A stretch of DNA of 64,000 nucleotides from Malacoraja senta (taxonomy: Eukaryota). The notes under the pieces are model-generated. The model was not told the origin of the DNA. It did not search any database and saw only the letters and a list, made by a program, of their open reading frames with translations. Positions 1 to 49,946 of this stretch are shown piece by piece. Position 1 is the first letter of the stretch. Each line of letters opens with the position of its first letter. The DNA lies in NCBI GenBank assembly GCA_038087875.1, contig CM075988.1, forward strand, positions 21,640,001 to 21,704,000, in the 5' to 3' direction. The position numbers were made by a program, and so were the translations under genes.

Positions 1-1075
1 TGGAATTACAGGAACAGGCCATTTGACCCAGGTGGGCATACGCCATTTCCCGGTTGCTAAACCACTTAACTCCCCCTTCCTTCCCTCTCACACTCCAAAG
101 ACGTAAACATTTTCAGGTCCAGACCCGAAACATCACCTGTTTCTTTTGTCCAGAGATGCTGTCTAACCCGTTGAGTTACTCCAGCTTTGTGTCTATCTTC
201 GGTTTAAACCAGCATGTGCAGTTCCTTCCTGCAGGTTTGTAGGTTCATCGGCTTCGGTAACAATTGTAAATTGTCCCTAGCGTGTAGAGTACGTGCTAGT
301 GTACAAGGTGATCACTGGTTGGCGTGGACTCGTTGGGCCAAAGGGCCTGTTTCTGCGCTGTATCTCTGAAATCTGAAGTCTTAAATTAATGAATTCTCGC
401 ACACTGTGAATTTCTGCCTTGGTAACATCCAGCTCATCCTTAATTCCTTACAAGAAACCTAGCATGGATTAGTTGTTCAATCAATATCGCCCTGGTGTCT
501 AATTACTTCAACAAAGTTGTTTGTGATTTGAAGATTTGCTCTCGGTGGGATTGTTTACAATTGGTGGTCTTCTGATGGATTTTAAAGACAAGCTATCCGA
601 TGGCTTCATGCTGCCGATGTGATGCAGATTCATGCCATTTGTTAAGAATTAAGAGTACCTGGAGATTCATGTGCCTTGACGTTTTACTAAGTGGAAATTT
701 GTGAATATTTCAGTGCACAGGATGGTAATCTCCAGCAGCTTGCCTCCAGGTAACCATGTCAATCGATGAGTAGGAAAATGTTCCAAAGCTATGAAATAAG
801 GCAGAATTGCTGAAACACTCAGCAGAACTAACAAAGCATCTTTGACCCAAAACATTAATCTGTTCATTGCACATCATGTTGGCCTGCATTGCTATTCGCA
901 TCCCTGTATTCCTCTTGATATCATCTCTTCCCCAGCCCAGAGATTGTGGGCTCCACCTTGCCTTGATCATCGTCACTCTGTGCATACCTTTCATTCATTG
1001 ATTCTCGTTGAGTCTAGAGATACAGCGCGGAAACAGGCCCTTTGGCCCGCCGTGTCCGCGCCGACCAGCGATCTC

Positions 1076-1216
1076 AGCGGGGTGGAAGATTGCAACCTTC
1101 ACGTGGTCCGCCCTGTTTCGACGAATGCAATCAACCTGGCGTGCACAATCAAATAAGATCAATAGAACATGTTGTCCTACAACTTTAGGCTGTGCACGCC
1201 ATACGCAAGAAGAAGA
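1076..1216 (+). mobile_element. Short non-autonomous retroelement (family A): HDV-like ribozyme head and (GAA)n tail, inserted into a V-SINE
   Basis: 9-bp TSD AGCGATCTC at 1067-1075 and 1217-1225; tail CCATACGCAAGAAGAAGA; 11-bp inverted repeat TGGCGTGCACA/TGTGCACGCCA (1137-1147/1191-1201). Confidence 0.85.
1079..1132 (+). ncRNA. Minimal HDV-like (delta-like) self-cleaving ribozyme, family A
   Basis: P1 GGGGTGG(1079-85)/CCGCCCT(1108-14) with G1.U wobble. P2 GATTGCA(1088-94)/TGCAATC(1126-32). P3 ACC/GGT around L3 TTCACGT(1098-1104). G1115, vestigial P4 TTTCGA, then J4/2 CGAA with putative catalytic C1122. Element order matches the HDV double pseudoknot. Confidence 0.85.
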
Positions 1217-1737
1217 AGCGATCTCCGCACATTAACACTACCGTAAACACTAGGGACAATTTACACTTACACCCTTCCAATGAACCGACAAACCTGTACG
1301 TCTTTGGAGTGTGGGAGGAAACCAAAGATGTCGGAGAAAACCCACGCAGGTCACGGGGAGAACGTACAAACTCCGCACAGACAGCACCCATAGTTGGGAT
1401 CGAACCAGGGTCTCTGGCTCTGTAAGGCAGCAACTCTACCGCTGTGCCACCGTGCCGGCCATGAACTAAACTAATTGGTGGTGCATATGCAAATGTCTCT
1501 GTGTAAATTATAAAACTGGTTATTAAAAAAATTATTAAAAATTCAGATTTTTTTAAAACTATGCAAATAGATTGGAATTTTGCATTCTGCACAGAAGAAT
1601 ATCTGTTATCTCTGTCAAACAATTGCCTTTGCAGTCCTTCAGTAAATATCCATGTCGACCTTTGGAAAGGAAGATAGATACAACAAGATGGAGTAACTCA
1701 GCGGGACAGGCAGCATCTCTGGAGAGAAAGAATGGGT

Positions 1738-1765
1738 GACGTTTCGGGTCGAGACCCTTCTTCAG
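1738..1765 (-). ncRNA. Minimal hammerhead ribozyme motif in a Penelope terminal module
   Basis: Minus strand reads CTGAAGA-A-GGGT-CTCG-ACCC-GAAA-CG-TC. Confidence 0.7.
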
Positions 1766-2874
1766 ACAGTTCCTTCCTACACATTTGGAAAGTAAGAGCT
1801 GTCTTCATTCTGAGTCATGAATTATTTAGCATTGAATAAGTTAACACAAGACAAAGTCCTGACAGAAGTACTTTGAAAAGTTGGCTCGTTCAAGTGGAAC
1901 TGATGGATATTTAAAAAAACAAAAAATAGCAGAAAGATCCCTTTTTGAAATATTTAATATTTATCTACTTTTTTTCCTTTCCGTCTACAGTGTCTTCACT
2001 TTGTCTGCACGGACTCTCTCCAATGTCTTCCTGACTGACGCGTTTGATAATGTGTGCTGAAGGCTATTTTATCCATATAGTTTTATCACTTGTAAGCCCA
2101 ACTTTAATTTCATCTTCGAGAGACACAAAAAGCTGGAGTAACTCAGTGGGACAGGCAGCATCTCTGGAGAGAAGGAATGGGTGGCGTTTCGGGTCGAGAC
2201 CCTTCCACGTTTCATCTTGATGTCCACGATCGGTCTCACCAGATGAGTTATTCTGAGTTATAGTCATGGAGTCATCAGTGTGGAAACAGGCCCTTCAGCC
2301 CAACATGCCCATGCCAACCAATATGTCCCATCTACACTAGTTCCCACCTCCCTACATGCAGCCCATACCCCTCCAAACCTAAGGTAGACACAAAAAGCTG
2401 GAGTAATTCTGCATGTCAGACAAGCTCTCTGGAGAGAAGGAATAGGTGACGTTTTGGGTCGAGACCCTTCTTCAGGTTTAAACCAGCATTCTGCAGGTCC
2501 TTCCTACATATACCCTCCAAACTTATCCCATCCGTGTACACTAAACCTATTCTATCCATGTACCTGTAATTGGACTGGATGCTCCTGAGTAAATGAACTG
2601 GAAACAGGTCAAGTCTCCTTTCTCAGCTTCATCCATCCACTGGGAGTTCATGTGTATCAGATGTCGTATCATTGTGGGATACTTGGAACTCTCTTCCCGC
2701 AGTGCGTCCGCGCCGACCAGCGATCCCCGCACATTAACACTATCGTAAACACTAGGGACAATTTACACTTACACCCTTCCAATGAACCTACAAACCTGTT
2801 GGAGTTAAACCCACGAACGCTGCAAAAATACTGAGGTCGATCGTACATTAGCGTCTGAGGCAGAAAGGACAATT

Positions 2875-3176
2875 AGTTTAGTTTAGAGATACAACGTGGA
2901 AACAGGCCCTTCAGCCCACCCGCGCCGACCAGCGACCCCCGAACACTAGCGCTCTCCTACACACTAGGGACAATTTACAATTTTTATCAAAGCCAATTAA
3001 TCCACAAACCAGCACGTCTTTGGAGTGCGGGAGGAAGCCAGAGCACCCGGGGAAAACCAACGCAGTCACGGGGAGAACGTACTAACTCCATACCGACGGC
3101 ACCCATAGTCAGGATCGAACCCAGGTCTCTGGCGCTGTAAGGCAGCAACTCTACCGCTGCGCCACCGTGCCGCCCC
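2875..3176 (-). mobile_element. HE1-like V-SINE
   Basis: Full tRNA head, V-domain and tail ending (TAAAC)n on the minus strand. Confidence 0.85.
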
Positions 3177-3276
3177 AAATGACGGCAAAAAAAGCAAGCA
3201 AATGGGGAATAAAGAAAACAAGTGATGTAGACAAACTTCCACTCCTTGACTTGATTGAAGACAGCTAGGATAGGAT

Positions 3277-3580
3277 TGGCGGCACAGTGGTGCAGCTGGT
3301 AGAGCAGCTGCCTCACAGGGCCAGAGGCCTGGCTTCAGTTCAGACCTGGGCTACTATCTGTGTTTGGGAATTTGCCCCCATGGTCTCCCTGTGACCGCGT
3401 GGGTTTCCTCCGGTGGGTGTGCTCCGGTTTCCTCCCACACTCCAAAGACATGTAGGCTAATCAGCTTCTGTAAATTGTCCGTAGTGTGTGTAGGATAGTG
3501 CTAGTGTATGATTGCAAGTCTGTGGGGATTCAGTCGCTGAATGGCCTGGTTCCAAGCAGTATCTCTAAAACTCTAACTAA
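3277..3580 (+). mobile_element. HE1-like V-SINE (diverged)
   Basis: GGCGGCACAGTGGTGCAGCTGGTAGAG head; V-domain GGTTTCCTCCCACACTCCAAAGAC; CR1-like tail. Confidence 0.75.
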
Positions 3581-6110
3581 ATAAAATATGAATCTTGTCC
3601 TGGACTGATATTGCCGATGGATTATGAGTTAGTATAAAAAGCCGTGGTTGGTTTACACAAAGGAGTAAACAAGATCCATTATTAAATCATTATCATAACC
3701 TGAGTCACAAATTATTTTGTAAAACAAATATTTGGATATTATATTTTTTAGGATCTGAATTAATAATTAATAACCAGCAGTGATAGTTCATTTTAACTTC
3801 AACGGACACAGCTCAGAGAGGTGTTATAAAACGTATCGTAGCTTAGCTTGGAGATACAGCATGGAAACAGGCCCTTCGGCCCACCGAGCCCACACCTGTT
3901 CACACTAGTTCTATGTTATTCCACTTTCCCATCCGCTCCTTCTACACCAGGGGGAAAATGACCATTTACAATTAGCCTACAATCCAGCACGTCTTTGTGA
4001 TGTGGGAGGAAGCCGGAGCTGGCGGAGGAAATCCACGCGGTCACCGGGAGAACGCGCAAACTCCACACAGACGGGACCCGAGGTCAGGATCGAACCAGGG
4101 TCTCTGGCACTGTGAGGCAGCAGCTCTACCAGAAGATATATAGAAGAAAGCTCATTTCTGCTCTATGTGGATTTGTGAAAATGACGCAAGATCTTTCAGA
4201 AAGAGTGGAGGGAGAAGGGTTCATTCTAGGTCGACATTTACTGATGTGATTTCTATAAATCTTGTTGCCTTATAAAATTCCTGGATTTCTCACAGGGGAG
4301 TGCCTTACCCACTCTCTCTCACTGTCTGACATCAACACTTGATCAAATCAATCTCTATTTTCTGGATTGATGAAAGGCATATTTCAAGAAACCAGAGAGC
4401 TGCACTAAAACAAAACAGACATGGATTCATTAAACATCACACAGCTTTGTGAGAATGCACAATTGGATTGACTTGGTCTTATCAAGTCACTTACACACAT
4501 TGAATAGGAATGAGATGTGTCTGATAGACCACTGCATGGCGTGGAACCTCGACAATGCCACCAAGTGTTCTGCTGTTCGAAATTGGATTTTGTAAATTCA
4601 ACAACAAACATTTCATTAAAACGTAAGATTTATATCTGTGTTATGATGAACATCCCAATGAGTCCAATAGCTCTCAAGACTGGATCTAGGAATTGAAACT
4701 CGCTTCAATGAATATATTTGCAGCTGCACGAGTACCGTTCTGTTGCAAATTGCAAATGACATCCCAGCGCAGAGTTGAAAGTATTTGCGTGCAGTTTGAA
4801 TGGGCTTTACCTACGGAGCATAACGCAGTCTCTTTTACAGGCACAGGGCAGAGCGGCGCAGCTGGTAGAGTTGCTGCCTCACAGAGTCAGAGACCCGGGT
4901 TCGATCCTGAACTCGGCTGCTGTCCGTGTGGAGTTTGCACGTTCTCTCTCCCCTGTGACCGCGTGGATTTCCTCCGGGTGCTCCGTTTTCCTCCCACATC
5001 CCAAAGACGTGCAGCTCTGTAGCTTCTGTAAATTGTCGCTCGTGTGTGGTGAGTGGATAAGAAAGTAGGAAAATATAGAACTAGTGTGAACAGGGTGATC
5101 GATGGTCGACATGTTGCGGCAAAGGGACTGCAGATTCTGGTCTGCACCGAAGATAGACACAAAATGCTGGAGTAATTGAGTGGGACAGAAGGGTCTCGAC
5201 CCGATACGTCACCCATTCCTTCTCTCCAGAGATGCCGCCGGTCCCGCTGAGTTACTCCAGCATTTTGTGTCTCGTGTTCAATGGTCAGCGTGGACGTGGT
5301 GGGCCAAATAGTGTGTTCCCACGCAACACCTTTCAATTCAATTGCAATTGCACTTCAATTCTTTATTTTGTAGGATGCAGAGCAAAGCTGTGCTCTTCAA
5401 AGTAGTCCTGGCTGACATACGGGGGAAAGGTCAAGGTGCTACATAGCAAGCAAAGCAAAGAGAGCATTAATTCTTTGGTCTGGCTGTGGGTGCAGTGATG
5501 TATGAGAGGAACAGCCAGCACCACAGTCCAAGACAAATCAGTTGTGAATACGTTAAACATCCACCTCTGGGGAATGTGTCCCCACGCAGTAACTGGTAGT
5601 ATTCAGTTTAGTTCGGAGATGAAACCTGGAAACAGGCCCTTCGGCCCATCGAGTCCACGCCGACCAACGACCAACTTCCATGCTATCCCACTTTTTCATC
5701 CACTCCCTACAGACTGAGGGCAATTTGCAAAGGGCAACTAACTTAGACGCATGCATGCATACTACATGTGTTTAGGATGTAGGAGGAAACTGTAGCACCT
5801 GGAGGAAACCCACGTGGTCACAGGGAGAATGTGCAAACTGCCACACACAGAGACAGTACCCGAGGTCAGGATCGAACCTGGGTCTCTGGCGCTGTGAGGC
5901 AGAAGCTCTACCAGCTGTGCCACCATGCTGCCTGCGGAGGAGCTGTGGACAGATGTAGACCAGCAATGATTGAATGGCGGTGTGGACTCGATGGGCCAAA
6001 TGGCCTAATTCTGCTCCTATGACTACTAAACTTATGAACTTAGCACAAATGCAGGAAGGTGGGACTAGTGTAGATGGGGCATGTGACAATGTTTTTTCAC
6101 TACACGCGAC

Positions 6111-6162
6111 GGGGTCAAGGAAAGAGCGTTCACGTCGCTGCCCTGTTTCCACCAATCTTTCC
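6111..6162 (+). ncRNA. Minimal HDV-like ribozyme, family B (copy 1)
   Basis: P1 GGGGTC(6111-16)/TGCCCT(6139-44, one mismatch). P2 GGAAAGA(6119-25)/TCTTTCC(6156-62). P3 GCG/CGC around L3 TTCACGT. Then G, TTTCCA and J4/2 CCAA. Confidence 0.8.
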
Positions 6163-6286
6163 ACCACCATACACAAGAAGCACAAGAAGCGACAAGACAG
6201 ACACCATTGTATGCAGATGCCGAGAAGTGTATTCGGCTCTGGCTGAACAACTTCTAATCTTGTGTGTGGGCTCGATAAGAAGAAGG
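6111..6286 (+). mobile_element. Short non-autonomous retroelement (family B): HDV-like ribozyme head and (GAA)n tail
   Basis: 11-bp TSD CTACACG(C/T)GAC at 6100-6110 and 6287-6297. The insertion starts exactly at ribozyme G1. A homologous copy lies at 49771-49946. Confidence 0.85.
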
Positions 6287-8287
6287 CTACACGTGACAAT
6301 ATTAAACGAAGAAAATTGTAATGGCATGACCAAACTTATAACCCAAATATCTGCTTTCTTGATTTCGCTTAAAAGTGATCAGACTGCACAGTGGGCTCAT
6401 CGTTCACTGAAGGGCACTTGACTGTAGATGATCGGGTCAGGGATGTCAAAACTGCAATTTAATGAAAGTGGGAAAATGTGCAGAAAATGGTTGTTCTGTT
6501 CTATTTGGGAGGACATGGAACTATGGAAATGGCAGCTGTTAGCTCGCGATTGGCTAGACAATGGATTCTTCTTCTGGCCAGCATAATTCTTTATCCATTG
6601 TGACGGGACTGGACCTATTTAACAATCCATTCAAACTACGCTGCGAGATAAATATTCTCATTTCCCAACTGAACACACGCATCTATCAGGTCTTCTCCTT
6701 GAATACAAGCTGACTCAATGAGCAAGTTGGCATTTCCGCTGACGAGAAATTGCATTTATTGTGGAATCCAAATCTCCGATTAGCAATGTATAAAAAGCAA
6801 TCATTGGAAACATTTCAAGACTATTTGAATTCAAGAAGAAAATAATAAACTGGAATTAGATTATTCGAGCTAATCATTCAATTATAATTGTCGTAATTTA
6901 AGAAAAAGATATTTTGGCCGAGATGTCACACTCAATCAACAAAAATGTATTTTGTCTTTTTCAGTTATGGAAAACGATTAAAATTATTAAGTCCTGATGC
7001 AGAGTCTCAACTCGAAATGCCGATCATCCCTTTGCCTCCACAGATGCTGCCCGACCCACTGTGCGGAGTTTGTACGTTCTCCCCTTGACCTGTGTGGGTT
7101 TTCTCCAGGAGCTCCGGTTTCCTCCCACACTCCATAGAGGTACAGGTTTGTAATTTAATTGATTTGGTATCATTGTAAATTGCCTCTGGTGTGTGTGTGT
7201 GTAGGATCGTGTTAGTGTGTAGGGATCGCTTATACCTAAAATGGAAATTATGAATGAATGACAGCAAGGACCCGGTGGGGGGTGGGTTGAGAAGTAATGG
7301 TGTCCCGGCGAGTTGCCTGCGGCCACGTGCGCTGGCATGCCTGGTTCACCGCTGCGAGAAGATGAGGCCGTACTTGTCGGTGCCAAAACGTGGCAGTTTT
7401 CCGTGTACTGCCTCGGTGCTGTATGATTTCAGCATGTGAGGAAACTCGACCCCCCCCCCCCGGAGAAAAAACAGGGGAAGCATTGATGTGCCCAGACCTT
7501 CTGCCAGATGAAGCTATTGAAACGGATACAATTGCGACAGTGCGGCACGTTGGCGCGGCAGTAGAGTCGCTGCCTCACAGCGCCAGAGACCCGGGTTCAA
7601 CCCTGACTGAGTTTGTCCCTTCCCCCTGTGACCGCGTGGGTTTCCTCTGGGTGCTCCAGTTTCTTTCCACACTGCAAAGACGTGCAGGTTTGTAGGTTAA
7701 TTGGCTTCTGTAAATTCTCCCTAATGAGTGATCGCTGGTCGGCACGGACTCGGTCGGTCGAAGGGCCTGTTTCCGCGCTGTAAACGAAATGGAAAAAAAA
7801 CCCAAGTCTCATATATTTGTGTCGATTTGTCCCTAGCACATGTCTCGGCATCAAGGAGGTTAGTTTGATTCTTCCTTCTTGATGGGCTAAAAGATGATAA
7901 AAGCCACGACAACCAGCCACGGCAAACTATGATGCATGGCACCAGGCAACATCGTAGCATTCCCTCTCTTCCACCGTCTCCCCAACCAATAAGACAGAAA
8001 ATTACTCTTTGCCGCAACAGTTCGGAGTGAAGCCACGGAGCAAATGGCCCCTGCAGAGTTGTGTCAATGATAGAAGATGAGAGGAAAAACAAAGGTCTGG
8101 ACTAAAACGACATCAGATGTCAAGTCAATATATGAGGACTGATCGAGAGATTTAAAAAATGCTTCTGTCAGAGTTGAGACATTGTGTGCAGGAAGGAACT
8201 GCAGATGCTGGTTTACACCGAAGATAGACACAAAATGCTGGAGAAACTCAGCGGGACAGGCAGCATCTCTGGAGAGAAGGAATGGGT

Positions 8288-11335: not shown

Positions 11336-13509
11336 CACCAGTTACTCCAGCATTTTGTGTCTATCTTCGAGACAATTGGATGATGCTACAATCTATATTT
11401 GAACTGACTCTGATGAAATACCAAGGGTAAGACTGGTAAAGGCTGACTAATCTGATAGGCACAACAAGCTGGAGTAACTCAGCGGGACAGGCAGCATCTC
11501 TGGGGAGATGGAATGGGTGACGTTTCGGGACGAGACCCGTCTTCAGACTAGTAGATCCTACTAGTACTGGGGCAGCATTGCTCACTGTTGGCGAAAGAAC
11601 AGGAATAAAATCATTCCATTTTTTTAATCACCAGTTACTGACAAAAACACAGGCTGGGAGTTTTAAATTGGAGCATTTCCTGAGGATGGATTTTTATTGA
11701 TGGTGTCCGTAAAATCCTACTCAATCATGATGTACCTGCAATTATAATCTGTTAAATCTTCTCAAACAGCTAATGAGCCAGTAAACCATTATAAACGCAG
11801 AAACGTTGAGATGTCCATTAGTATTCTGTGGCTCTCTTGATAGAAGATGGAAAAGACATTTGGATATAACATAATTTAGGGATAGCACTGTGGCGCAGCG
11901 GTAGAGTTGCTTCTACAGCGCCAGAGACCCGGGTTCGATCCTGCCCACAGGTGCTGTCTGTACGGAGTTTGTACGTTCGCCCCATGACCTGCTCCGGTTT
12001 CCTCCCACATTCCAAAGACATACAGGTTTGTAGGTTAATTGGCTTGGGGATCAATTGTAAATTGTCACAAAACAGACACAAAATGCTGGAGTAACACAGC
12101 AGGACAGGTAGCATCTCAGCGGGACAGAGAGAAGGAATGGGTGACGTTTCTGGTCGGGTGCTTTAGACCGAAGAAGGGTCTCGACCCGAAACGTCACCCA
12201 TTCCTTCTCCCCAGGGAGGCTGCCTGTCCCTTTCAGTTTCTCCGCCACTTCGTTGCAAACCAGTATCTGCAGTTCCTTCCTGCACATTTCCCAAACCTTT
12301 CTCCCCGGCAGCGCTAATGCTTATTGGATCATCCCCATCCTTGCGTTTTTGTTTTCCTTCCCATTTGCATTTCTGAAGATGTTCCTTTTTGTTAGTAAAC
12401 GGTTATTGTCCGGGAAGGGAAAGCTGTGTAAGGTGTTACACGCCGAAAAAACAATGATATGTCCACTGCTGGCAGCCGCAGATTAGATGTTGAAGTGGAA
12501 TTGGCTGCAAGATAGCCTAGCATCAGGAGCCATGACTGTAATGCAAGAGTCCAAGCAACTGAGTGAGATTTGATTTGACTGCTTTGCCAAGGATTTTCAA
12601 GGACGAACCATTAAGCTGCCTGTGAAATTAAATGCTCTATTGAGAATAGTTCGAATAAAAACAACAGCGGTGGATGTCATGTATTGCAGCCCAGAATGAT
12701 TATACACATCAGGTGCAGATGTTAACCCTGTGTTCAGGCCCACTGATCTAGGATAAACAAGGCAAAGTGGTACGTTATGTGTTTAGTTTAGTTTGGTTTA
12801 GTTTAGTTTAGAGATACAGAACGGAAACGGGTCCTTTGGCCCACCGAGTCCATGCAGACCAGTGATCCCTGCACATGAACACTATCCTACACAGACTAGG
12901 GACAATTTTTACATTTACACCAAGCCAATTAAACTACAAACCTGCACGTCTTTGGAGTGTGGGAGGAAACCGAAGATCTCGGAGAAAACCCACGCAGGTC
13001 ACGGGGAGAACGTACAAACTCCGTACAGACAAGCACCCGTTGTCGGGATTGAGCCCGGGTCTCCGGCGCTGCATTCGCTGTAAGGCCGCAACTCTACCGC
13101 TGCGTCACCCTGACCGCTAAAGATGTGGGACAAAAGGATTGAAGAGTTATGAATTGTGAAGCTGGAGGAAGGAATGTTGACGGGTTGGGGGGGGGGGGGG
13201 GAATAGGTGCAGGCTCAGGTGCGGTTCTGGGAGGGGGAAGATAGGCGGAAAAATCTGAGGGGGTTGGGAGTTGTTAGAGGTTACCTAAATATGAAGAATT
13301 CAATGTTCATACCATTGAGTCGTAATCTATTGAGTACTGTGTTTACAGAAGTGTTGTGTTTACAGAAGCAAGTAAGAATTTATTGTTTCATTTCTGGACA
13401 TACTGTATGACAATTAAACATTCTTGACTCTCTTGACTCTTGAGGTAAGGACTTGTTGTTTTTTTGGCCTGTCAGCCTTAGCAGCAAGTGAGTCAGGGTC
13501 TAGTGGAGC

Positions 13510-14465
13510 GCCCATTTAGAGAGGGGCCAGTTTGGAGCGGCCAGTTTGAGAGGGGCCAGTTTGAGAGGGGCCATATTGAGAGGGGCCATATTGAGAGGGG
13601 CCATTTTGAGAGGGGCCAGTTTGGAGCGGCCATATTGAGAGGGGCCAGTTTGGAGCAGCCATTTTGAGAGGGGCCAGTTTGGAGTGGCCATATTGAGAGG
13701 GGCCAGTTTGGAGCGGCCATATTGAGAGGGGCCAGTTTGGAGTGGCCATATTGAGAGGGGCCATTTTGAGAGGGGCCAGTTTGGAGCGGCCATATTGAGA
13801 GGGGCCAGTTTGGAGCGGCCATATTGAGAGGGGCCAGTTTGGAGCGGCCATATTGAGAGGGGCCAGTTTGAGAGGGGCCAGTTTGGAGCGGCCATATTGA
13901 GAGGGGCCAGTTTGGAGCGGCCATATTGAGAGGGGCCAGTTTGGAGCGGCCATATTGAGAGGGGCCAGTTTGAGAGGGGCCAGTTTGGAGCGGCCATATT
14001 GAGAGGGGCCAGTTTGGAGCGGCCATATTGAGAGGGGCCAGTTTGGAGCGGCCATATTGAGAGGGGCCAGTTTGAGAGGGGCCAGTTTGGAGCGGCCATA
14101 TTGAGAGGGGCCAGTTTGGAGCGGCCATATTGAGAGGGGCCAGTTTGAGAGGGGCCAGTTTGGAGTGGCCATATTGAGAGGGGCCAGTTTGAGAGGGGCC
14201 AGTTTGGAGCGGCCATATTGAGAGGGGCCAGTTTGGAGCGGCCATATTGAGAGGAGCCAGTTTGGAGCGGCCATATTGAGAGGGGCCAGTTTGAGAGGGG
14301 CCAGTTTGGAGCGGCCATATTGAGAGGGGCCTGTTTGGAGTGGCCATATTGAGAGGGGCCTGTTTGGAGCGGCCATATTGAGAGGGGCCAGTTTGAGAGG
14401 GGCCAGTTTGGAGCGGCCATTCAGAGAAGGGCTAGTTTGGAGCGGCCATGTTGAGAGGGGCTAGA
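13510..14465. repeat. G-rich minisatellite of interleaved 14-15 bp subunits (TTTGGAGCGGCCAT / ATTGAGAGGGGCCAG / TTTGAGAGGGGCCAG)
   Basis: Directly visible ~950 bp tandem array; it explains the three overlapping ~290-aa minus-strand ORFs. Confidence 0.95.
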
Positions 14466-26061: not shown

Positions 26062-26162
26062 AGTCCGGGGAAAAGGAGACGAGAGATACAGACGGCGATA
26101 TAGTGAAAAAGATATGCAAAAATGTACACGCTTGGCTGTGGTAGCGAGTCTGGGTTCAAACG

Positions 26163-26592
26163 TGGGATAATGTGGACTGGACTAGCGTGGAAAATGTGGA
26201 CTGGAGTTTTGTGGATAATCTGGACTGGACTAGCCTGGAAAATGTGGACTGGAATCTATGTGGAAATGTGGATTGGACTATTGTGGAAAATGTGGACTGG
26301 TTTGCTGGATAATGTGGACTGGACTGGCCTGGATAATGTGGACTGGAATTTCCTGGAAAATGTGGACTGGAGTTACCTGGAAAATGTGGACTGGACTTCC
26401 CTGGAAAATGTGGACTGGAGTTACCTGGATAATGTGGACTGGACTAGCCTGGAAAATGTGGACTGGATTAGCCTGGAAAATGTGGACTGGATTAGCCTGG
26501 ATAATGTGGACTGTCTGGCCTGGATAATGTGGACTGGACTAGCCTGGAAAATGTGGACTGGATTTTCCTGGAAAATGTGGACTGGACTACCC
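26163..26592. repeat. 24-bp minisatellite (GGAAAATGTGGACTGGACTAGCCT), about 18 units
   Basis: Directly visible tandem array; it produces the NVDWTSLE/WKMWTGL repeat ORFs. Confidence 0.95.
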
Positions 26593-49600: not shown

Positions 49601-49770
49601 GCAGACTTGATGGGCCGAATGGCCTAATTCTCCTCCTATGTCTTATGGTCTTCAATGGGAAGAGAGATAGAAGTTTAAGTCAGCATGGATAAGATGTGCC
49701 AAAGGGCCTGTTTCTGTGTTGTATAACTCCTTGACTCTTCCACCATTCACCTACACACTAAGGTTAACTT

Positions 49771-49946
49771 CTTCTTGTCGAGTCCACACACAAGATTAGA
49801 AGTTGTTCAGCCAGAGCTGAACACACGTCTCGGCATCTGCGTACACTGGTGTCTGTCTTGTCGCTCCTTGCGTTTCTTGTGCGTGGTGGTGGAAAGATTG
49901 GTGGAAACAGGGCCGCGACGTGAACGCTCTTTCCTTGACCCCATTA
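49771..49946 (-). mobile_element. Family B ribozyme-headed short retroelement (copy 2)
   Basis: 12-bp TSD TAAGG(T/A)TAACTT at 49759-70 and 49947-58; (GAA)n tail; homologous end to end with 6111-6286. Confidence 0.85.
49891..49942 (-). ncRNA. Minimal HDV-like ribozyme, family B (copy 2, all helices intact)
   Basis: Minus strand reads GGGGTC AA GGAAAGA GCG TTCACGT CGC GGCCCT G TTTCCA CCAA TCTTTCC. Confidence 0.85.

Follow-up and report, generated by a model that had tools for sequence, protein, structure and literature searches.

Two SINE-like retroelement families with a predicted P4-less HDV-like ribozyme at their 5′ end, and a LINE headed by a CPEB3-type ribozyme, in the genome of Malacoraja senta

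Ribozymes of the hepatitis delta virus (HDV)-like class are defined by a G1-U pair at the cleavage site and by a catalytic C in the joining segment J4/2 that is followed by N-A-A, and self-cleavage has been proven for one of the families with this fold, the CPEB3 ribozyme. Here, we analyse a 64,000-nt stretch of DNA from Malacoraja senta (assembly GCA_038087875.1, contig CM075988.1, positions 21,640,001 to 21,704,000 of the forward strand), which is referred to as the window and numbered from its first base. A 176-nt element at positions 6111 to 6286, the main copy of a family that we call B, starts with a 52-nt head that has the predicted fold of such a ribozyme and lacks its helix P4. The window also contains a copy of a second family, A, with a head of the same architecture, and a long interspersed nuclear element (LINE) of the same genome, LINE C, begins with a full ribozyme that includes P4. 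We place families A and B within the known kind of retrotransposons that carry an HDV-like ribozyme at their 5′ end, as a P4-less form that resembles short interspersed nuclear elements (SINEs) and is predicted to undergo self-cleavage.

Several described systems are close to these elements. The CPEB3 ribozyme is described as mammalian (PMC10919898) and, in an account from 2021, as mammalian only, with outgroups lacking (PMC8233481). HDV-like ribozymes also occur at the 5′ ends of retrotransposons without long terminal repeats (non-LTR retrotransposons), including R2, RTE, Baggins and L1Tc, where the cleavage site is the 5′ end of the element, which is promoterless and co-transcribed (PMC6765202, PMC3774820). 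The R2 SIDEs of Drosophila and NARTc of Trypanosoma cruzi are non-autonomous elements that have retained the 5′ ribozyme of their parent LINE and are mobilised in trans (PMC3414825, PMC3383444). Double pseudoknots without P4 are known from drz-Mtgn-1 and the theta ribozymes of gut phages, which are found in metagenomes and phages, next to tRNA genes (PMC10879173). Finally, hammerhead SINE-like elements and retrozymes are non-autonomous retroelements that contain a small self-cleaving ribozyme (PMC4918200, PMC7229834). The literature that we searched yielded no CPEB3-family ribozymes on LINEs and no P4-less ribozyme-headed SINE-like families, although a prior description is possible.

Fold and covariation of the predicted ribozyme heads

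The copies of families A and B in the window are composed as follows:

6111..6286, + strand: family B element, main copy; 176 nt, comprising the predicted ribozyme head, a body with predicted structure and an (AAG)n tail
6100..6110, + strand: upstream target-site duplication (TSD), ctacacgcgac; its last base adjoins G1 (6111)
6111..6162, + strand: predicted P4-less HDV/CPEB3-like ribozyme, 52 nt; Rfam CPEB3_ribozyme 20.4 bits (partial), model R1 (built from LINE heads, see below) 45.6 bits (full length)
6163..6276, + strand: body of the main copy, 114 nt; predicted long outer stem around an inner hairpin, predicted single-stranded 3′ terminus ...GGGCTCGAT
6277..6286, + strand: tail of the main copy, (AAG)3 plus G
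6287..6297, + strand: downstream TSD, ctacacgtgac, directly after the tail
49768..49942, − strand: family B, second copy; the ribozyme at 49942-49891 is identical to the consensus of the family, with a 6-bp P1
1079..1218, + strand: family A copy; predicted ribozyme at 1079-1132, tail at 1207-1218

The head of the main B copy reads GGGGTC AA GGAAAGA GCG TTCACGT CGC TGCCCT GT TTCCA CCAA TCTTTCC. Its helix P1 pairs GGGGTC (6111-6116) with TGCCCT (6139-6144; element positions 1-6 with 29-34) and opens with a G1-U pair (G6111:T6144), P2 pairs GGAAAGA (6119-6125) with TCTTTCC (6156-6162; positions 9-15 with 46-52), and P3 pairs GCG (6126-6128) with CGC (6136-6138; positions 16-18 with 26-28). The remaining segments are J1/2 (AA, 6117-6118), the loop L3 (TTCACGT, or UUCACGU in the RNA, 6129-6135), J1/4 (GT, 6145-6146) and J4/2 (CCAA, 6152-6155), whose first base, C6152 (C42), is the predicted catalytic C and is the base that the initial annotation of this DNA had chosen for a mutant control. 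With P1 and P2 crossing each other and P3 lying inside P1, the head has the topology of a nested double pseudoknot, and it contains both the G1-U wobble and a J4/2 of the form C-N-A-A, which aligns with the CGAA of the CPEB3 model. The helix P4 is absent from both families, which have only 5 nt (TTCCA at 6147-6151 in B and TTCGA at the equivalent place in A) where the models have 21-24 positions. Since P4 is also missing from described 'minimal' members of the class (PMC10879173), its absence does not exclude HDV-like membership. The initial annotation had given P1 as GGGGTC/(G)GCCCT, which is correct for the family consensus (GGCCCT) and for the second window copy, both of which form six pairs, whereas the main copy has a T at 6139 (position 29) that mispairs with C6 and leaves five.

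When Rfam was applied to the whole window at its gathering scores, there were no matches, and A and B were seen only in permissive scans. In these scans, the CPEB3_ribozyme model matched the main B copy partially (6111-6144; 20.4 bits, E 0.0053) and the intact B copy at 49942-49891 over model positions 1-78 (28.7 bits, E 6e-6), with 7 nt in place of 21 P4 positions. The segment AGCGUUCACGUCGCG of the intact copy, which comprises P3, L3 and P3′, is identical to the consensus of the model. The core pattern TTCACGT-N-CCCTGTTTC has three matches in the window, compared with 0.00 in 100 shuffles.

The family A head (1079-1132) reads GGGGTGG AA GATTGCA ACC TTCACGT GGT CCGCCCT GT TTCGA CGAA TGCAATC. 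Family B had been described from the outset as having other helices in the same architecture as A, and this description has proven accurate: the helices can be read directly from the sequences, and the CPEB3 model and R1 both place the same helices. In a MAFFT alignment of 64 A and B copies (A1; 57 distinct rows), 96.3% of the P2 and P3 cells are paired, compared with 71.5 ± 1.5% after shuffling, where none of 500 shuffles reached the observed value, and 30-47% with slid partners. Seven of the ten P2/P3 pairs differ between A and B on both sides; the C-G pair in the middle of P3 and the outer pairs of P2 are unchanged. P1, which was not placeable in common columns of this alignment for the two families, was counted per family by script; it is paired to 90% in B and 93% in A, is C-G at position 6 in B and G-C in A, and has a seventh pair in A. 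In a second MAFFT alignment (A2), which comprised 77 copies of A, B and C, the 3′ halves were misaligned, and it was excluded from the counts. The full helix covariation claimed initially thus holds for seven of the ten P2/P3 pairs and for P1 position 6, but P3 covaries in only two of its three pairs, the middle C-G being constant. Likewise, the proposed invariant core is borne out by L3 and C-N-A-A, which are kept in A and B, but not by J1/2, which is GA in the A consensus (AA in the window copy of A and in some others).

Compensatory changes had been taken as a sign of a selected fold, and the data agree with this interpretation: an absence of covariation was not observed, given the 96.3% pairing in A and B and the double changes at 13 of 23 pairs among the LINE lineages described below. 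Because A and B share 5-nt linkers (TTCCA and TTCGA) and yet have changed P1, P2 and P3 by compensation, the whole active-site architecture, rather than a single helix, appears to have been selected in the P4-less state, and the retention of L3, J1/4, C-N-A-A and G1-U while the helices changed argues for continued catalytic selection. The comparison of A with B covers one evolutionary split and is, taken alone, a modest sample, and variation within one family represents the decay of dead copies and is silent on selection. To look for another P4-less family built on this core, a pattern was used that barred the P2′ strands of A and B; it gave 17 hits, all of which were mutated A copies, so that by this search there is no third family.

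Insertion boundaries, copy numbers and element bodies

The 11-bp TSD of the main B copy directly abuts G1, as stated in the initial annotation: its upstream copy ends at 6110 and matches the downstream copy at 10 of 11 positions, the sole difference being of the CpG type. Having no open reading frame, no terminal repeats, a simple-repeat tail at the 3′ end and TSDs that are specific to each locus, the 176-nt element shows the characteristics of a non-autonomous non-LTR retroelement. The two B copies of the window (6111-6286 and 49942-49768) are 93% identical. The window copy of A, flanked by the TSDs cgatctcagc (1069-1078) and cgatctccgc (1219-1228), is a clean insertion into an older SINE, with flanks that overlap by 7-10 nt on four intact copies of the host SINE; its empty site is deduced from these four paralogous, uninterrupted copies in the window. 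The interrupted SINE itself (1003-1078 and 1219-1465; repeat families D3, D8, D10, D14 and D15) is very abundant.

Counted over the 1.94-Gb assembly, exact matches to the core number at least 1257 when its spacer is 5 nt (mostly B), compared with one for a reversed-pattern control, and at least 5207 when it is 6-9 nt (mostly A), compared with four, which gives 6464 matches against 5 for both patterns together. Exact words from the 3′ bodies match 1098 times for B and 5443 times for A; by these counts, heads and tails are about equally common. The exact 52-nt ribozyme consensus of B is present in 255 copies. The median divergence from the family consensus amounts to 13 of 163 positions in B (n = 35 copies; the B consensus is 163 nt long) and to 8 of 135 in A (n = 29).

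The 5′ ends were examined in two ways. In an unbiased sample of 30 loci picked by a 3′ word, which covers family B only, 26 carry the head. For three of the four headless loci (L065, L067 and L072), the head is present 0.4-1.1 kb further upstream on that strand (L004, L006 and L017), which makes them the 3′ parts of elements split by nested insertions, so that a single locus (L077) is truly truncated. In the survey of TSD ends, 47 B copies were examined, of which 12 without a recognisable 3′ end and 12 with a weak TSD were dropped, leaving 23; for family A, 34 copies were examined and 5 and 10, respectively, were dropped, leaving 19. In 21 of the 23 B copies, the end of the upstream TSD lies between −1 and +3 nt relative to G1, namely exactly at G1 in 10, one base before it in 3 and 1-3 nt inside the G-run in 8, the latter ends being either ambiguous with the leading Gs or a sign of slight truncation; the remaining two lie four bases before G1 and five bases inside the element. 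For A, 17 of 19 ends fall within the same range, 9 of them exactly at G1. The TSDs are 9-14 bp long and different at each locus. Furthermore, in contigs of X17, the run that holds this locus, likeness to the element is lost at positions 1481-1483 of L025 (G1 being 1483) in about 330 pieces and at position 1648, in the tail, in 111 pieces, with a flank consensus agreement of 0.35-0.37. The consensus of the element therefore stops at G1, with none upstream. We also looked for the opposite pattern, a consensus reaching far upstream of G1 combined with random 5′ truncation, and did not find it: heads are retained at 26 of 30 loci, 21 of 23 and 17 of 19 TSD ends cluster around G1, and the flanks are unrelated.

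Some loci deserve separate mention. Three pairs (L027/L028, L045/L046 and L088/L089) contain the same element with identical flanks at distances of about 44, 57 and 114 kb (44-115 kb) and represent segmental duplications rather than independent insertions. Several elements are found within 3 kb of each other at L032, which has two A copies, and at L081, which has one copy of each family; at L032, GGGGTG recurs in the downstream flank behind the TSD, pointing to microhomology at the 5′ junction.

The bodies of A and B are not significantly similar in sequence (local score 26, compared with 19.0 ± 3.7 and a maximum of 37 for shuffles). Minimum-free-energy folding, for B based on the family consensus, predicts a common plan in which an outer stem surrounds an inner hairpin ending in ACAACTT. 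Following its 114-nt body, the main B copy ends with AAGAAGAAGG; in general, B terminates in GGACTCGAT-(AAG)n and A in CCATACGC-(AAG)n, and the terminus ...AC(N)CGA(N)(AAG)n is common to A, B and the LINE. The bodies had been called unrelated, which is true of their sequences but not of their fold plan and 3′ terminus.

A classical SINE has a head derived from a tRNA, 7SL or 5S gene and an internal promoter, whereas the head found here is a LINE-derived ribozyme. ARAGORN reported no tRNA-like genes at window positions 900-6500, and Rfam reported no gene family transcribed by RNA polymerase III (Pol III) at 6000-6400, the only matches being that of CPEB3 and a snoRNA match of 14.8 bits (E=5) outside the head. 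No promoter of its own was detected for family B or for family A by these ARAGORN and Rfam scans, which included no search aimed at Pol III A and B boxes.

LINE C and its relatives

The first base of the 3.1-kb LINE C is G1 of a full ribozyme that includes P4; the element codes for both an endonuclease and a reverse transcriptase and has an (AAG)n end. Its heads were found with a pattern that allowed for the start of P4; this pattern gave 63 hits, compared with 99 for the control, and hence no overall enrichment, but one recurrent variant, accounting for 17 of the 63 rows, represents the C heads, all 17 of which were fetched. The following copy is full-length:

L099:13-3119 (G000:C1:86602702-86605808): C1 LINE copy; a 73-nt ribozyme with an 8-bp P4 comes first, followed by a single endonuclease-reverse transcriptase frame, which is broken here

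This copy has an 11-bp TSD, AATCACAACCT, on both sides, ends in ...GACACGAA(AAG)3 and matches the Pfam families Exo_endo_phos, Exo_endo_phos_2 and RVT_1. The C1 head reads GGGGATC AA GGTAGAA GCG TTCACGT CGC GATCCCT GT CAAGTAAT-ATCACCAA-ATTACTTG CGAA TTCTACC. Two further lineages, C2 and C3, have other P1, P2 and P4 sequences; a C2 copy ends in ...GGACACGAAAGAAAA and is flanked by the TSD AGCATCTGTAA. In the genome, a 16-mer of the C1 head has 22 exact matches and a 25-mer of the 3′ end 166. In seven cases, a head and a tail are paired on one strand, at a distance of 3.06-3.14 kb in six cases and of 3.79 kb in the other. The excess of 3′ ends over heads, together with this spacing, is the pattern expected of a 5′-truncating LINE. 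Judged by organisation only, namely one apurinic/apyrimidinic endonuclease-reverse transcriptase frame between a 5′ untranslated region of about 100 nt and a 3′ untranslated region of about 30 nt, and a simple-repeat tail, LINE C fits an RTE-like element.

All three lineages exceed the gathering score of the Rfam CPEB3_ribozyme model (35 bits), with 61.3 bits for C1, 59.7 and 54.5 bits for C2 and 39.9 and 38.4 bits for C3, the whole model being aligned in each case. Since the first paired G of the model aligns with the first base of the LINE, the predicted cleavage site coincides with the insertion boundary. In nine C copies, the full double pseudoknot is paired to 91.6%, and 8 of 23 pairs show double changes. 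The termini of the three element types are alike, reading GACACGAA-AAG in the LINE, GGACTCGAT-AAG in B and CCATACGC-AAG in A, and LINE C is, judging from these sequences, likely to be the autonomous partner of A and B.

Two peculiarities were observed among the LINE heads. At L108 (G000:C8:937549-937718; G000:C8:937662-937806), GATCAAGGTAGAAGCGTTCACGTCGC is repeated about six times with a period of 25-26 nt in front of the complete ribozyme of a full-length LINE, and a two-unit version of this type of repeat exists at G000:C4:35489741-35489782; these repeats may have arisen by template slippage on the GATC that is common to both P1 strands. The C3 copies L100, L101 and L102 have a 4-bp P4 and the P2 strands AGAAGGA/TCCTTCT, the first 3-4 nt of their P1 are replaced by flank, and the copies diverge after about 25 nt (ACCACGCTACACTAACTAACC...). 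C3 may represent a very short element that has a (TAAC)-like tail and depends on a different partner.

The reverse-transcriptase segment of the LINE has 1298 homologues at E <= 1e-20, typically of 900-1000 aa and encoded on contigs of 3.0-3.4 kb. The named sources are insects, echinoderms, amphioxus, a lizard, a notothenioid fish and crabs, with 48-69% identity. One 970-aa relative with 55% identity (P0087) lies on a 3.5-kb contig that is filed under the cyanobacterium Moorena sp. and is probably eukaryotic DNA in that assembly. From metagenomes, 80 loci encoding LINE relatives were fetched, and Rfam was run on the 20 that include the N-terminus and upstream DNA. One of them (L116:1117-1189; the same locus in L117 and L118, three assemblies in all) has a CPEB3_ribozyme match of 55.6 bits about 310 nt upstream of the LINE frame, and its P1 (GGGGGCC/GGCCCCU), P2 (AGCAGAA/UUCUGCU) and P3 are those of the Rfam CPEB3 consensus. 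Another metagenome locus, L135, has a further ribozyme with different P1 and P2. These two heads and seven C heads together cover five lineages, among which both sides have changed in 13 of 23 pairs, a number reached by 0 of 500 shuffles; 89.6% of the cells are paired, compared with 77.1% after shuffling and 37-52% with slid partners.

From these nine LINE-head ribozymes, we built the covariance model R1 (P2, P3 and P4), which contains no A or B sequence. At E <= 0.01, it gave another six hits, which belong to five loci that were not used for training (L185 twice, L126, L127, L142 and L155), each with helices of its own, including an ACC/GGU P3 in L127 as in family A. In the 64-kb window, R1 has exactly three hits, namely the second B copy (48.4 bits), the main B copy (45.6 bits, E 5e-11) and the A copy (34.0 bits, E 1.3e-7), all aligned end to end, with 5 nt in place of 24 P4 positions. 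As a model without any A or B sequence finds both families, it provides independent confirmation of the fold proposed initially. Across these ribozymes, P4 forms a length series: it is absent, 4 bp, 8 bp or longer.

Elsewhere in the window, there are two tandem arrays, one at 13449-14229, whose 52 listed copies have a 29-nt period with spacings that alternate between 14 and 15 nt, and one at 26117-26561, with 13 copies and a 24-nt period.

Proposed mobilisation, rival explanations and known systems

We consider it probable that A and B are short non-autonomous non-LTR retroelements with a P4-less HDV-like head that are mobilised by LINE C. In the cycle that we propose, the element would be transcribed within longer host transcripts, and its 52-nt head would fold as a CPEB3-type HDV-like double pseudoknot, with P4 cut down to a 5-nt linker, and cut the RNA directly 5′ of G1. 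The 3′ product, consisting of the ribozyme, the structured body and the ...CGA(N)-(AAG)n end, would then be copied by target-primed reverse transcription, using an enzyme supplied by the 3.1-kb LINE C, which has the full 5′ ribozyme and the same tail and whose enzyme would recognise the terminus and the tail. Copying that reaches the RNA's 5′ end would yield insertions that begin at G1 and are flanked by 9-14-bp TSDs. Catalysis by the P4-less head, co-transcription and the role of LINE C as the mobiliser are the predicted steps of this cycle. The architecture of the heads, their covariation, the copy numbers, the boundary at G1 and the presence and anatomy of LINE C are observations.

Several observations weigh against this reading. 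No RNA run is listed as containing the stretch itself; the RNA level was examined with raw polyA reads of a related organism (X23; one library), which were placed on a near-consensus B copy. Of 226 reads placed, 96% continue into unlike flanks, and at least 73 cross G1 into other sequence. An accumulation of RNA 5′ ends at G1, suggested as a check in the initial annotation, is not seen in these reads, in which no position has many molecule starts, G1 included. These reads lend no support to cleavage in vivo and count weakly against efficient cleavage of most copies, weakly because most copies are decayed (255 exact consensus ribozymes compared with at least 1257 cores) and because they come from one library of another species; runs of three other organisms contain B copies with the same consensus. 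Moreover, B remains below the gathering score of 35 of the CPEB3_ribozyme model (20.4 and 28.7 bits), and A has no CPEB3 match at all, only one to HDV-F-prausnitzii of 14.4 bits (E=2) that nevertheless spans exactly 1079-1132, and the main B copy itself has the P1 mismatch at 6139. The bodies of A and B, compared with one C1 and one C2 copy of the LINE, gave only chance-level matches of 13-26 nt, and with the bodies being dissimilar, the partnership between A/B and the LINE is based only on the tail, the 12-15 or so terminal nt and the type of ribozyme. Finally, a sharp 5′ end is equally expected from a fixed transcription start.

Such a start is part of an explanation in which the head is a catalytically dead relic of a LINE ribozyme whose fold has been kept for another use, such as binding of the LINE protein, promoter activity similar to that of Pr77 of L1Tc, or RNA stability, with G1 being set by the start of transcription. 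The reads that cross G1 uncleaved without any pile-up of starts would fit this explanation, as would the missing P4 and the scores of A and B below the Rfam gathering values, and a head acting both as promoter and as ribozyme is known from L1Tc and NARTc (PMC3383444). However, A and B are P4-less and have nonetheless acquired compensatory changes in P1, P2 and P3, with C-N-A-A, L3 and G1-U unchanged, natural P4-less HDV-like ribozymes have been described (PMC10879173), and the insertion boundary agrees to the nucleotide with the cleavage site predicted by alignment to the CPEB3 model. On balance, we regard a dead relic as unlikely.

Far less probable still is an ordinary Pol III SINE with a tRNA-, 5S- or 7SL-derived head, whose 5′ end would be the Pol III start and whose likeness to a ribozyme would be incidental. 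The SINE-like size, the copy number and the sharp 5′ end would suit such an element, but ARAGORN finds no tRNA-like structure at 900-6500, Rfam, in scans not aimed at Pol III A and B boxes, reports no small-RNA family for the head other than the CPEB3 ribozyme, and the head is homologous to the 5′ ribozyme of the LINE. That the ribozyme likeness of A and B is due to chance or to helices chosen by eye might be suspected, as the initial annotation took the helices from the sequences themselves. Yet, the core occurs three times in the window and never in 100 shuffles of it, its genome matches exceed the control by 6464 to 5, slid partners reach 30-47% pairing as opposed to 96.3%, and the Rfam CPEB3 model and R1 place the same helices, so that this idea can practically be dismissed.

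New, as far as the searched literature goes, are SINE-like families that number thousands of copies and are headed by a P4-less HDV-like ribozyme instead of a Pol III gene; if the reading is true, they exemplify a promoter-free route by which a short retroelement obtains a defined 5′ end in a vertebrate-sized genome. Likewise new are ribozymes that exceed the Rfam threshold of the "mammalian" CPEB3 family at the 5′ end of an autonomous LINE, and the same type of ribozyme upstream of related LINE frames on metagenome contigs, which supplies numerous lineages with covariation as well as a natural gradation in the length of P4. It is tempting to speculate, and in our view a serious if tentative possibility, that the intronic CPEB3 ribozyme of mammals arose by exaptation of a 5′ end from the present lineage of RTE-like LINEs, that these LINEs are the missing outgroup, and that minimal P4-less HDV-like ribozymes, as in A and B, can be present by the thousand in a vertebrate genome and drive a SINE-like life cycle that needs no Pol III promoter. 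The exaptation is suggested by the scores of the LINE heads against RF00622 (38-61 bits) in a genome whose repeats and copy numbers point to a non-mammalian source, probably a cartilaginous fish, and by the metagenome P1 and P2, which equal the CPEB3 consensus. Should the link to CPEB3 be real, comparative genomics could be used to test where this ribozyme, which has been implicated in memory, came from.

Among the known systems, the closest in sequence is the CPEB3 ribozyme (RF00622), located in an intron of mammalian CPEB3, with which B shares AGCGUUCACGUCGCG, a G-rich P1 with G1-U, the J1/4 sequence GU and a J4/2 of the form C-N-A-A. A and B differ from it in lacking P4, in having another P2 and in scoring below threshold, and they represent thousands of dispersed retroelement 5′ ends rather than one intronic locus. 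With R2, RTE, Baggins and L1Tc, the elements share the ribozyme-first layout, into which LINE C fits directly, whereas the ribozyme is here one of the CPEB3 sequence family. Like SIDEs and NARTc, A and B are short, non-coding and headed by an HDV-like ribozyme. However, SIDEs and NARTc are internal deletions that keep long parental ends, while A and B are like the LINE only in the ribozyme, the 12-15 or so terminal nt and the tail, the likeness (in one C1 and one C2 copy compared) being limited to the homologous ribozyme at the 5′ end and to the terminus at the 3′ end; in addition, A and B are P4-less and present in thousands of copies genome-wide. Hammerhead elements and retrozymes carry a different class of ribozyme, and retrozymes use circular RNA, whereas nothing here suggests circles. 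The lack of P4 is shared with drz-Mtgn-1 and the theta ribozymes, but A and B are eukaryotic, stand at the 5′ ends of retroelements and are visibly derived from the P4-bearing ribozyme of a LINE.

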